Positions 29,755-59,538 of a stretch of 64,000 bases of DNA are shown here, piece after piece. Numbering within the stretch: position 1 is the first letter of the stretch; each line of letters starts with the position of its first letter. The notes beneath the pieces are model-generated. The model was not told the DNA's origin. It ran no database searches and worked only from the letters and a program-made list of their open reading frames with translations. This DNA comes from Eledone cirrhosa (taxonomy: Eukaryota), in the NCBI GenBank assembly GCA_964016885.1, contig OZ024760.1, positions 34,100,001 to 34,164,000 of the forward strand. The letters run 5' to 3'. Position numbers and translations under genes: made by a program.

Positions 29755-29813
29755 GCTGCCTGATGAGGTCATAGCTGTTGAATAATGGTTATCACCGAAA
29801 TATATATTGCAGC
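29755..29813 (+). ncRNA. Type I hammerhead ribozyme motif (Penelope/retrozyme-type)
   Basis: GCTGC-CTGATGA-GGT C ATAGCTGTT gaat AATGGTTAT C ACC-GAAA-TATATA-TT-GCAGC. Stem I, both core boxes, stem II and a palindromic stem III are all present. Confidence 0.8.
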
Positions 29814-31197
29814 GAACATGAATAAATGAAGTTAATTTTAATCTGTTGACTTACACTTTTTGTTTTTTAAATTACTCCGGAGTAAACAGACCCACCTGCA
29901 CACTTTGAGTGCTCTACCCTGCATACTGAGGATGTCGGTAAGCAACACATACACAAATCTCTCTCTCTCTCTCTCTCTCTCTCTCTCTCTATATATATAT
30001 ATATATATATATATATATATATATATATTGGTGAATCCATACGTACATATATATATGTATGCATGTATGTATATATATATACATACTAATGTACGTCTGT
30101 ATACATATATGTATGTACGTGTACATACTTATATTTAAGTAACAGCCGTACTAAGAGTGGGAAATGAAATTTCGTTTCATTTTTTTCGTTTATATATATA
30201 TATATATATATATATATATATATATATATATATATATATATACATATATATATATATATATATATATATATATATATAGAGAGAGAGAGAGAGAGAGAGA
30301 GTCTGTGTTTCTGGAGGTAACATATAGAGAGTGATTTTAAACTGAGCATTGTTGGTACGTAGAGATGAACGTCAATCGACGGAGACTACTCTCGTAATTT
30401 CTCGTCCAAAACTAGTTCCGTGGGGAAGAGTTCGCCACCCGGGAAGCAGTATTCTACAGAGGGTTGCTAACTTATTCTCCAGATTCTAAAACGAGAAGGA
30501 AAGATTTTTTTTCTGTTGATCTCATAGTGATGATGGATATAGATGTAAGTGGATAAGAGTTGTACTTGATTCAGATAAAATGTTGCATTGACAGGTTCTT
30601 TTAACCTTTCAATGGGGGATTCGGTGTATTTTCACCCAATATTTTAGTACGTTTGCTAAAACCTCTGTGTCAGCCTTGCAACAACTTGTCAGTTTTCATT
30701 TAACATTTATGTATAACATTTAACATTTATGTATAACATTTAACATTTATATATTTATATATATATTGTGTAACATTTATGTTTTGTCATTTTGCATACC
30801 TGGTCAGTTTCATTTTGCATTTAACCTTTGTACGTGTGTCAATTTCTATAACATGCACTAAAGGGGTCTTTCATATGAAAATTTGGGGATTTGCTGTGCA
30901 TTTTGTGTGTGTGTGTGAGGACCACCGATCCTGAAAAGAAAGGGAGAAGGAAGAATAGAGAGAGGGTGAGAGATGGAGAGAGAGAGAGAGAGAGAGAGAG
31001 AGAGAGAGAGAGAGAGATGGAGAAAGAGAGAGAGAGAGAGAGAGAGAGAGAGAGAGAGAGAGAGAGTGAGAGAGAGAAAAGATCGTTGGCAGAAAACGCA
31101 GGCATAAATGGAAATGTTTTAGAAATATTTTGTGACATTGTAGGGTTCGAGACACACACATCTATATATCAAACACACGCACACACATACATAAATG

Positions 31198-31307
31198 TAT
31201 TTATTATTAGTACAGATTAAAGTTTAAGCAAAGAATTTCTGCTTTCACCCTATAAGAGGGAAAGCAGAAATTCTTTGCTTAAACTTTAATCTGAACTAAT
31301 AATAAAT
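31198..31307. repeat. ~50-bp-arm hairpin built from a dispersed repeat
   Basis: ATTAGTACAGATTAAAGTTTAAGCAAAGAATTTCTGCTTTC is followed by its reverse complement. The same arm occurs unfolded at ~41447-41490 and ~60038-60060. Confidence 0.8.
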
Positions 31308-31344
31308 ATTTGCTCTACGGGTTTATATAAACTTATATATATAT

Positions 31345-33070
31345 ATATAAAATAAAATAACAGGAGGCTGGACTGGTGTAAATCCTTGAAAGGTTTATTA
31401 TACTATGATTATTCCAATGACCGGGTTCCATATGAATCCGGTGATATCATCAGGTATTGGAATATAACAAAGGAATATGTAAAAAGCCAACTAGCTCCCT
31501 TTACCTCGGCCAGTCGCCCTCAAAGTGGTGACAACTGAATCTACTATGACCATCAGGTGAGGGGGCGAAGGCTTATAATGCACTACCACCTCTCCGTCAA
31601 GAAAAAGGGGAAGAAAGAAAGGAAGAAAAGAAGAAAAAAGAGAGAAAGAAGTCAGCGTAAGGGTCACACTACATTCATGCTAGAAAATGCCGCGAAAAAA
31701 ATGCTACTCCAAAGAATCTATAATGGGTGTCTGTATGGTCTAATGTGTGAACCGAAGATTGGAACATTAAAGTTATGTTGCGAGTTATAGGATGAAATAA
31801 AATTAAATAAAAAATATTAAATTGCAAAATGATAAATTGAAAATTAAATTATTAGAAAATTAAAGGTTAAGTTAGCGAGATTTATTTAATGAACTTACGG
31901 AGAGAGTCTTATATGAAAAAATTTATCTCGATAAGATATTAGGATGGGATATAGAGTAAAGATTTCGATTGCGAGTTCCAACCCCCCCACCACCACCACC
32001 ACCATGAGTCATAATAGTTATGCCTAAACCTGGAGTTTATAGGTGTAAGTATAATATGGCGGCCAAAACAGGCGGCGCGGTAGGACCGGGGCAAAGCAAG
32101 CCGCTCCGAGTAATTTCGTTTACCGAAAGAGGAGAAATTTATTTTTCCGAGCACTCAAGGAAGGCTGAACTTTCCGAGTGCCCAGCGCGCAGCCGGGAAA
32201 AGCTACCACATAAGTCGAAGGTAGCAACCCATTGAAAAGTGCAAATAAACCATAATTATTTTAAAGTCCCAGTTAGTCCGGGTTATAAGTAGTGTGGTTC
32301 TTAGGTGGGTAGGGGGCTATGAAAGGTGCATAATGACCTGAGTAAGGAAAGTTACAAAAAATTAATAAAAGCAGGATACAAATATAAAATACAAATATAA
32401 GGATAGAATACATTGATAAAAATACATTAATAAAATAATAAAAAATTAATAAAGGTAAATAACTAGGGATGTAGAAAGACGGAAGTATATAAGAACGTAT
32501 CGGAGGAATCACAGTGTAGGGGAAATACAATATAGATCAAGTTATCGTAAGATAATACAGGTTGTACATATAGATATAGAGGATGGAGGAGATGGAATGG
32601 TAACAGGTTGTACCTAGTGTAAAGTTCGGGTCTCTGAATTCAGTGTGAGTCACAAAAAGTCCTGAGGTATAGAGTCAAGAATTCAGTCAATACAATACAT
32701 GTTTTAGTATAATACGTAGAGTTTTGTCGGAATCGGAATCATCCCGACAAGGAAGTAGTATCAGGTGGCGGTAGATAAAGCACAGAGCAGCCAAAATATT
32801 TTTACATATTCCTTTGTTATATTCCAATACCTGATGTTACCACCGGATTCATATGAAATGATCATAGTATAATAAACCTTTCAAGGATTTACACCAGTCC
32901 AGCCTCCTGTTATTTTATTTTATTTATAATTAACTCCGCATTCGCACCACCAACTACACAAACGAAGATGGGTGAACTGCACTACGTTGAGTACTCTCCA
33001 CAATATTACACCAAGATTGACCATACGGAATGACCAATTCTATCCAGTGGTGAACCAACAAACCTAAAGA
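31345..33070. mobile_element. Non-autonomous Penelope-like element with ~135-bp inverted terminal copies carrying degenerate hammerheads
   Basis: 31345-31485 is the reverse complement of 32797-32925. The left arm on the minus strand reads ATAC-CTGATGA-TAT C ACCGG..CCGGT C ATT-GGAA-TAATCA-TA-GTAT. The right arm reads CTGATGT..GAAA-TGATCA-TA-GTAT. Both ends abut (TA)n. Confidence 0.6.
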
Positions 33071-33508
33071 TATATATATATATATATATATATATATATA
33101 TATATATATATATATATATATATATATATATATATATATATATATATGGAAAGTTATATTTAAATTGTTGGGTTAACAACGAGTAAATATTTATAACTGA
33201 TATAAAAGCACTCAACAAGTATTTGGAGTATATTTATGATATTAATCTCTATCTATCTCTTTCTTTTTTCCTCTCTCTATATATCTCTCTCTGTTTCTTT
33301 ACATGAAGTTCTTCTCTTTATCTATCTTTCTATATCTCTCTATTTAGTCACATGCATTTCTTCTTTTTCTTCGTTTTTCTTTCTTTCTTTCTTTCTCTCT
33401 TTCTTTTTACAACTGTCCACAATATTTTTTACTGCCAAATCAACTTCCCAAATGCAAGTCGATTGAAAGGTTTGTCGTATCTATTTATTTATAAGACTGT
33501 TTATATTG

Positions 33509-33574
33509 TATTTTGTCTGAAGAAGGCATAACATATTGTTAATATGATATCCCTGAAATATATATAATGAAATA
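33509..33574 (+). ncRNA. Type I hammerhead ribozyme motif
   Basis: TATTTTGT-CTGAAGA-AGG C ATAACATATT gtt AATATGATAT C CCT-GAAA-TATATA-TA-ATGAAATA. The downstream flank is homologous to the copy at 59476-59538. Confidence 0.75.
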
Positions 33575-58222: not shown

Positions 58223-58274
58223 TTTAGTTAACAATGCAACATCAACATTTGAGGATGTGTATTTTAAACCTTTA

Positions 58275-58483
58275 TCATTTACATTACTCTACATTTACTA
58301 TTATATTTTCACGGTAAAGACCTTACCTCACATAATATCTCACTTAACATTTACAATTACTCTATATATACCATTATATTTTCACGGTAAAGGCCTTACC
58401 TCACATAATATCTCACTTAACATTTACATTACTCTATATATACTATTATATTTTCACGGTAAAGGCTTTATCTCACATAATAT
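58275..58483. repeat. ~72-bp tandem triplication just 3' of the ACOD1 stop
   Basis: TTATATTTTCACGGTAAAG(G/A)CCTTACCTCACATAATATC occurs three times. Confidence 0.8.
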
Positions 58484-58518
58484 CGAATCTATGAGATTTT
58501 GATATTATTTATTTTGAG

Positions 58519-59405
58519 AACAACAGCCCGAATTACGCCGTACAGTGTTTGGAAACCATCGTCGCCTTTTTGTTCAACACTGACACAGGAACGATGTACT
58601 AGTTTCAAGCTTATTAGCTATCGTCAGCATCGTATACCTTTCTGTCAGATGATTGAACGTTTGAAAGTATATACTTTCCTTATGCATATTAACGGCTGAG
58701 CAGCCTAATTTTCATATCGAGTGAGTTAGTCGGCGAACCGAAATCGAATACCTTTCTGTCAGATGATTGAACGTTTGGTTGCCAAACACTGTACGGCGTA
58801 ATTCGGGCTGTTTGTTTACAAACAAACCGAACATTATAATAAACGTTCGGTAAACCCATACGTGCATATATATATATATATATGTACATGTATGTTTATA
58901 TATACATACTACTGTACGTCTGTATACATATATGTATGTACGTGTACATACTTACATTTAAGTATCAACCGTACTAAGAGTGAGAAATGAAATTTCGTTT
59001 CATCTTTTTCCATTTATCGTTTTCGGTTCGCCCGGCCGACTAACTCACTCGATATCCAACTTAGGCTGCTCAGCCGTTAATATGCATAAGGAAAGTATAT
59101 ACTTTCAAACGTTCAATCATCTGACAGAAAGGTATACGTTGCTGACGATAGCTAATAAGCTTGAAACTAGTGCATCGTTCCTGTGTCAGTGTTGAAAAAA
59201 AAAGAAAAAGGCGACGATGGTTGCCAAACACTGTACGGCGTAATTCGGGCTGTTTGTTTACAAACAAACCGAACATTATAATAAATGTTCGGTAAACCGA
59301 TACGTGCATATATATATATATATATATATATGTGTACATGTATATATATACATACTACTGTACGTCTGTATACATATATGTATGTACGTGTACATACTTA
59401 CATTT
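58519..59405. repeat. Composite inverted plus direct duplication of a dispersed repeat
   Basis: 58519-58742 is inverted against ~59023-59255. ~58778-58958 is repeated directly at ~59218-59405. Homologous sequence also occurs at ~30030-30190 and ~60000-60035. Confidence 0.8.
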
Positions 59406-59475
59406 ATTATTATTATATATATATATATACACAATGATATTAAATAAATGGAAACTATATTTATAAAACCATATT

Positions 59476-59538
59476 TATTTTATTATATATATTTCAAGGG
59501 TACCAAAACACATTGGTACGCTTTCCTCAGATAAAATA
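59476..59538 (-). ncRNA. Type I hammerhead ribozyme motif
   Basis: Minus strand: TATTTTAT-CTGAGGA-AAG C GTACCAA tgtgtt TTGGTAC C CTT-GAAA-TATATA-TA-ATAAAATA. Confidence 0.78.

Follow-up and report, generated by a model that had tools for sequence, protein, structure and literature searches.

A 64-kb stretch of the 3.0-Gb genome assembly of Eledone cirrhosa (GCA_964016885.1, contig OZ024760.1, positions 34,100,001 to 34,164,000; hereafter the window, to which all window coordinates refer) contains eight type I minimal hammerhead ribozyme motifs with intact cores and two degenerate copies. A second class of hammerhead, a minisatellite and fragments of coding sequence lie in the same stretch. 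A first-pass annotation of this DNA had placed the ten copies at these positions and proposed that they share one architecture, and both statements are confirmed by a motif scan, an alignment and a covariance model. The feature that sets them apart is a C that stays unpaired at the fourth position of an otherwise paired helix II. Together with the genome-wide counts and the comparison with relatives given below, it identifies these RNAs as a real, very abundant and lineage-specific variant of a known ribozyme class.

Architecture of the hammerhead copies

The eight intact copies follow a single layout, in which CUGANGA leads into three base pairs and an unpaired C; a long distal helix comes next, then the C or U opposite, the other side of the three pairs and GAAA. 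A palindrome or near-palindrome of 6 nt lies 3' of GAAA, followed by UA or UU and then by stem I, which closes across the motif with 5-8 bp. After GAAA come, in type I order, A15.1, the palindrome that stands in for helix III, U16.1 and the base at the cleavage site. The conserved core (CUGANGA...GAAA...U-H, both termini lying in stem I) is present in 8/8 window copies and in all 24 representative copies of a wider alignment described below. In the alignment of the window copies, the fourth base after CTGANGA is C and the fourth base before GAAA is C or T, each in eight of eight. The list of 3-bp stems given in the first-pass annotation is correct.

A loose scan of the window for CTGANGA..GAAA gives 11 matches against 9.6 expected by chance, which is no enrichment. 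The covariance model scores the eight intact copies at 62.8-77.7 bits, four of which belong to its training alignment and match by construction, and the next-best match in the window at 27.8 bits. Coordinates and sequence details are collected in Table 1.

Within the window, copies with the unpaired C occur singly or as head-to-head inverted pairs, and no head-to-tail tandem arrays of the metazoan non-LTR (long terminal repeat) retrozyme type are found among them. One inverted pair spans 318 bp (37983-38134 with 38149-38300) and leaves 14 nt between its arms. The other spans 4.9 kb (49937-51080 with 53029-54835) and contains internal duplications. The hammerheads point outward in both. Head-to-head inverted pairs and insertion beside TA repeats agree with descriptions of Penelope-like elements in the available part of PMC8557442. 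Across the genome, many hammerhead matches are minus/plus pairs 100-260 bp apart.

Table 1. Positions, strands and scores of hammerhead motifs and coding fragments in the window, with the position of the unpaired C where present
Feature	Position	Strand	Unpaired C	Score or evidence
Intact minimal hammerhead; stem I GCTGC/GCAGC; helix II GGT-C...C-ACC; TATATA; predicted cleavage after TT (29808)	29751..29817	+	29770	62.8 bits
Degenerate TGATCA-superfamily copy; TAT-C-ACCGG...CCGGT-C-ATT; GAAA changed to GGAA; TGATCA changed to TAATCA	31395..31465	-		27.8 bits, E 0.0015
Degenerate TGATCA-superfamily copy with internal deletion; core CTGATGT	32819..32875	+		11.5 bits, E 7.1
Intact minimal hammerhead; helix II AGG-C...C-CCT; TATATA; stem I ATTTTGT/ATGAAAT	33508..33575	+	33527	68.1 bits
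Intact minimal hammerhead; helix II AAA-C...T-TTT; TGCGCA; left arm of head-to-head palindromic insertion	38017..38089	-	38070	68.3 bits
Intact minimal hammerhead; right arm of insertion 37983-38134/38149-38300; C faces T 38242	38194..38266	+	38213	68.3 bits
Intact minimal hammerhead; helix II GAA-C...T-TTC; TGCGCA	40481..40552	+	40500	65.7 bits
Intact minimal hammerhead; helix II GGA-C...C-TCT; near-palindrome TATGTA; outer end, left arm of 4.9-kb inverted structure	49990..50058	-	50039	74.8 bits
Intact minimal hammerhead, identical to 49990..50058 copy; outer end, right arm of 4.9-kb inverted structure	54714..54782	+	54733	74.8 bits
Intact minimal hammerhead; helix II AAG-C...C-CTT; TATATA	59475..59539	-	59520	77.7 bits
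Second-class hammerhead; 6-bp stem I; helix II AGCT/AGCT flanked by T and T; AATA loop	58567-58734, core 58603-58627	-		motif scan
Second-class hammerhead; 6-bp stem I; helix II AGCT/AGCT flanked by T and T; AATA loop	59035-59202, core 59142-59166	+		motif scan
PhyH, host or transposon coding fragment	34800-35279	-		E 1.4e-7
MmgE/PrpD N-terminal domain, host or transposon coding fragment	47937-48473	+		E 1.1e-26
Mos1-type helix-turn-helix (HTH), host or transposon coding fragment	49385-49927	-		E 2.8e-5

Conservation of the unpaired C across the genome

Around 60,000 copies in the genome keep an unpaired C in an otherwise paired helix II. They fall into three superfamilies, and in all three the feature is conserved genome-wide, a point on which the first-pass annotation had made its proposal depend. 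Superfamily 1 (stem I TTTTAT/ATAAAA) gives 40,032 matches to a pattern that leaves helix II unconstrained, and 0 in a reversed control. With shorter flanks, the number of matches rises to 43,178, in which C faces a pyrimidine (Y) in 40,518 (93.8%) and a purine (R) in 790 (1.8%), while 1,870 (4.3%) have no C. Superfamily 2 (stem I ACTGC/GCAGT, helix II GGT-C...C-AYY, palindrome TATATA) has 14,258 matches against 71 in the control, with C facing C in 27 of the first 30. For superfamily 3, defined by the palindrome TGATCA, the corresponding figures are 5,573 against 0, and C faces C in each of the first 12. A scan of 270 kb of the genome that assumed only the core, stem I and the two closing pairs of helix II returned 51 distinct hammerheads, 41 of which have exactly three pairs and then C facing C or T.

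Exceptions within superfamily 1 were counted by eye. The first 100 of the 790 C-R rows include 18 in which C faces G and the pair is restored; these are scattered over families as singletons or as one insertion pair, and no amplified C-G subfamily occurs among those 100 rows. Copies that lack the C mostly carry T instead (first 100 of the 1,870 rows), the substitution to which a C in a CpG context is prone. Contigs from sequencing runs labelled as three organisms carry the commonest family and show no variant at a frequency of at least 5% at either of the two facing positions. Conservation of the C, and of its failure to pair, is strong but not absolute. Rows of the GAA-C-GCAAAT family with A in place of C (for example G000:C1:66452233, 122325748 and 211185494) may represent a small subfamily without the mismatch.

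Covariation was assessed with 24 aligned representatives of superfamilies 1 and 2, hand-picked as one per visibly distinct subfamily; one mutated copy with C facing A (L056) was exchanged for a cleaner copy of the same subfamily (L144). The C, at position 10.4, is invariant in 24/24, alongside CUGA, GA, GAAA and U16.1, and it forms a standard pair in 0/24, its partner being C or U. On both sides of this one-by-one loop helix II is 97% paired, and six of its seven pairs have changed on both strands. The same is true of five of eight pairs in stem I and of two of four pairs in the palindrome, where A15.1-U16.1 and the outermost palindrome pair never change and the inner ones covary. Overall, 91.3% of cells are paired, compared with 78.0% in shuffled alignments (reached in 0/500) and 31-55% when the partners are slid along the sequence; the covariation score is 0.521, compared with 0.257 (0/500) and 0.09-0.18, respectively. 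These pair and covariation counts rest on related sequences; they suggest constraint and fall short of proof. They support the first-pass annotation, in which a covarying stem beside a fixed mismatch had been noted, and extend the covariation to helix II on both sides of the C.

Helix II also differs from published forms near the core. CUGANGA is followed immediately by the three bases that pair with those just upstream of GAAA, and A9 adjoins 10.1 with no bulged base in between. Position 10.1-11.1 is A-U in 13 representatives, G-U in 7 and G-C in 4, so that the G10.1-C11.1 pair used to recognise type I hammerheads does not characterise these copies, although 10.1 is a purine in 24/24. The helix is unusually long, the loop separating 3 bp from a further 5 to about 11 bp. 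The alternative of equating the base next to CUGANGA with the published bulge was rejected, as this fits the AAA/UUU family only and fails elsewhere. In the TGATCA superfamily (5,573 copies, among them L149-L160 and the window copies at 31395-31465 and 32819-32875), T faces T at 10.1/11.1 and the adjacent pair covaries between A-T, G-T and G-C; hammerheads do not usually have a pyrimidine at 10.1.

Predicted folds are consistent with this architecture. Folded as single molecules, six of seven representatives form helix II together with its one-by-one loop, and only the 59475-59539 copy drops the three pairs below the loop. Cofolding of two copies gives a double hammerhead in 5/7, with an intermolecular helix III of 8 bp, stem I made between the molecules and both helix II hairpins intact. 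The predicted dimer lies 3.8-12.1 kcal/mol below two monomers in all seven. The first-pass assignment to the type I minimal hammerheads of Penelope-like elements is supported, with the palindromic helix III predicted to pair between copies. Inserted copies extend some 36-43 nt past the predicted cut (window 38258-38300; L002 1467-1503) and then abut TA repeats. The retention of about 43 nt beyond this point suggests that the RNA that was copied had not been cut at that hammerhead.

The second class of hammerhead lacks the unpaired C. It has a helix II of 4-5 bp, a small loop and a 4-nt CTAG palindrome, and it occurs at 40,375 places in the genome, compared with 9 in the control. Many of these lie in tandem arrays with a period of about 424-466 nt and are retrozyme-like. 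Elsewhere in the window, positions 42919-44600 form a long minisatellite with 9-, 12- and 15-nt spacing and about 139 copies of its reference window, in which several frames are open on both strands.

Carrier elements and known hammerheads

No retroelement open reading frame (ORF) is present in the window, and its ORFs of at least 120 amino acids carry no retroelement domain. The copies in the window are therefore truncated or non-autonomous. The link to a coding element comes from two other loci. At L032, a 590-amino-acid ORF contains a YRDD motif and, ahead of a GIY-YIG-like C-terminus, a cysteine/histidine cluster, with a superfamily 1 hammerhead 1 kb downstream and an inverted hammerhead copy upstream. 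At L031, ORF pieces between two hammerheads on the same strand end in a GIY-YIG match (E 1.5e-4, 22.4 bits against a Pfam cut-off of 22.6). Homologues of this type of ORF are numerous and carry PF26215 and PF28514, and RVT_1, HTH_animal and GIY-YIG occur together in the nearest Atlas clusters. A reverse transcriptase (RT) followed by GIY-YIG is the Penelope-like architecture, which identifies the carriers as Penelope-like elements. A location in the terminal repeats of an element encoding RT and then GIY-YIG is thus seen at L032 and L031, not in the window itself. A search of PDB sequences with the ORF profile gave no match.

Two RT ORFs beside a hammerhead in L002 were rejected as the partner element, as their FADD/YADD motifs look, by eye, like those of long interspersed nuclear elements. 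At L043 (671), L054 (2231) and six other loci, a hammerhead-like motif with one extra base, a 6-bp helix II and GAAC in place of the palindrome recurs at a distance of 730-830 nt from hammerheads of superfamily 2 and may either belong to one element with them or be a coincidence.

Relatives for comparison were collected with an alignment of the ORF protein and its homologues, which gave 80 metagenome contigs (L064-L143) with ORFs at 30-42% identity. Hammerheads on the ORF strand are present in 26 of these contigs and represent 20 distinct motifs; a looser scan gives 31 loci. At the fourth position of helix II, 19/19 motifs have a standard pair (G-C 6, U-A 5, A-U 4, C-G 3, G-U 1), the twentieth being too short to score there. 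Like the Eledone copies, these hammerheads combine a long helix II and a palindromic helix III with related ORFs, and some of them (L065, L087 and L089) even have a stem I, ATTTTAT/ATAAAAT, that is also found among the Eledone copies. In contrast to them, their helix II is uninterrupted over 9-11 consecutive pairs and almost always starts with GUG and ends with YAY, and their palindromes are 6-8 nt of the form C...G.

The closest described RNAs are the minimal hammerheads of metazoan Penelope-like elements, for which the supplement of Cervera and de la Pena 2014 lists 56 sequences from 40 species with the consensus CUGANGAH G...C GAAA N palindrome N U H (PMC4209133). These are likewise type I, with a palindrome for helix III that obliges two copies to pair and a longer-than-usual helix II, and they lie in terminal repeats of elements with RT and GIY-YIG, at very high copy number and with many families per genome. 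In their consensus an additional base separates A9 from 10.1, the 10.1-11.1 pair is G-C and helix II runs without interruption, whereas the copies described here have no extra base, A-U, G-U, G-C or U-U at 10.1-11.1, an unpaired C at the fourth position and a 6-nt palindrome. Three pairs followed by an unpaired C occur in 0/56 of the published hammerheads (PMC4209133 supplement). Taken together with the 19/19 paired motifs of the metagenome relatives, this indicates that the mismatch is derived and lineage-specific and not general to the retroelement clade.

Canonical type I hammerheads of animal satellites and retrozymes, such as those of Schistosoma and newt (PMC7229834), share the core, the topology and a short palindromic helix III with the Eledone copies, and the 40,375 second-class copies of this genome are of their kind. 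Their helix II is 4-5 bp long and ends in a small loop that contacts stem I in canonical forms. Helix II of the Eledone copies continues past this point, and the unpaired C lies approximately where the loop of those hammerheads would start. The PAc hammerhead, from a Poseidon element of Anolis, is also a Penelope-element hammerhead and offers a precedent for a protein-assisted ribozyme: in the portion of the report consulted, it cleaves in vitro only after the element's protein is added, and uncut RNA is the main substrate for insertion (PMC11167929). Its sequence is different, its hammerhead overlaps the start of the ORF, and that portion of the report describes no mismatch in helix II.

Rfam models, against which the first-pass annotation had proposed a comparison, find none of these RNAs. 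There is no match at the gathering score in the window, and no hammerhead family appears at E values up to 10 in positions 29000-60000 or in a 311-base stretch with two copies. Such an outcome is to be expected when helix III does not form within one molecule. A C mismatch in helix II is not mentioned in the literature searched, including the available parts of PMC6765202, PMC8557442, PMC6155905 and PMC11167929. Judged by the text and supplement of Cervera and de la Pena 2014 and the other literature covered, these RNAs may be an undescribed variant, with Lunse, Weinberg and Breaker 2017 as the likeliest place for an earlier description.

Possible roles of the unpaired C

We favour, with a probability of roughly 0.55, the reading that these RNAs are Penelope-like minimal type I hammerheads, predicted to cut as dimers, in which the fourth-position C is a derived feature that has likely been selected as a contact point and is not needed for the catalytic fold. 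According to this model, two copies would pair through the palindrome that replaces helix III, and cleavage would take place only in the dimer. The unpaired C would contact either the protein that the element encodes or some other stretch of the RNA, much as the first-pass annotation had suggested in speaking of a tertiary-contact or protein-binding feature, and selection would keep it for this role, with the catalytic fold itself indifferent to it. We propose a contact because a single base identity is retained at a constant distance from the core amid surroundings that covary. By analogy with canonical type I hammerheads, the C also lies approximately where the loop that contacts stem I begins, and cleavage of PAc required the element's protein, at least in the part of PMC11167929 consulted.

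Several observations weigh against this reading. Because the C never varies, its partner is not identifiable. All loop-carrying families may share one ancestor, in which case shared ancestry would explain part of the conservation. The distal part of helix II is known to be dispensable for hammerhead catalysis. Conversion of C-C or C-U to a pair needs a transversion, which slows its loss even without selection. The first-pass annotation had described a fixed C-Y mismatch, and the fixed C holds, but the strict pyrimidine opposite does not: genome-wide the facing base is also A, and about half of the first 100 of the 790 C-R rows, counted by eye, belong to an amplified C-A subfamily. The existence of this subfamily makes the rule C facing any base except G. 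A replaces C, and would pair with the facing U, in six of the first 100 of the 1,870 non-C rows (by eye; GAA-C-GCAAAT family), so a paired form is at least tolerated in inserted copies. Finally, both self-cleavage of these RNAs and its dependence on a dimer are predictions, the latter from cofolding.

The main rival is a frozen accident, in which the mismatch, a neutral change with a single origin in the ancestral family, persists because the distal part of helix II is immaterial and only transversions restore the pair. The carriers do share a related architecture and probably form one lineage, their relatives elsewhere work with a pair at the fourth position, and copies with A facing U or with a C-G pair exist. 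Most genomic copies are moreover dead on arrival, so that 94% identity at one site tells little alone. A neutral site should nevertheless have drifted, the more so with the C in a CpG, where C changes to T rapidly, in many families. Instead, the C is invariant both among the 24 representatives and in the third superfamily, while its partner toggles between C, U and A and six of the seven neighbouring pairs are doubly changed. The predominance of T among the non-C copies, as judged by eye, and the lack of an amplified C-G subfamily among the 100 rows listed also speak against neutrality. We therefore regard this explanation as a serious one, though on balance doubtful.

Two further explanations are weaker. 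The one-base interruption could tune the structure by weakening a helix II of 10-15 bp, and so avoid misfolding, kinetic traps or a resemblance to double-stranded RNA in the eyes of host defences, with no specific contact involved. This would suit the unusual length of the helix, and a facing base of C, U or A fits a rule of anything but a pair. However, helices just as long, with 9-11 consecutive pairs and no interruption, occur in the relatives elsewhere, and tuning would demand neither a 5' C in every family nor a position exactly three pairs from the core, which makes it an improbable account. It is more improbable still, in our view, that helix II and its unpaired C are primarily a 3'-end element bound by the reverse transcriptase to start copying and not a ribozyme feature. 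Truncated copies always retain the hammerhead and about 43 nt past the predicted cut (38258-38300), which suggests that the copied RNA was uncut there, and the main insertion substrate of PAc is uncut RNA (PMC11167929). Recognition alone, however, does not require the full catalytic core that is conserved alongside.

Should the loop prove neutral, it would still serve as a well-documented marker of this lineage within an established ribozyme class. That the unpaired C is a newly evolved docking site, through which the dimeric hammerheads depend on the element's protein or on a new contact with stem I, seems to us unlikely as matters stand. If true, such a docking site would be a lineage-specific switch that couples RNA self-cutting to the retroelement machinery in about 60,000 copies. 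Penelope-element hammerheads cleave poorly in vitro. A C that has stayed fixed and unpaired through extensive compensatory change in three superfamilies, at a position where relatives have an ordinary pair, offers a concrete and cheap handle on whether these ribozymes are activated by a protein or a tertiary contact.

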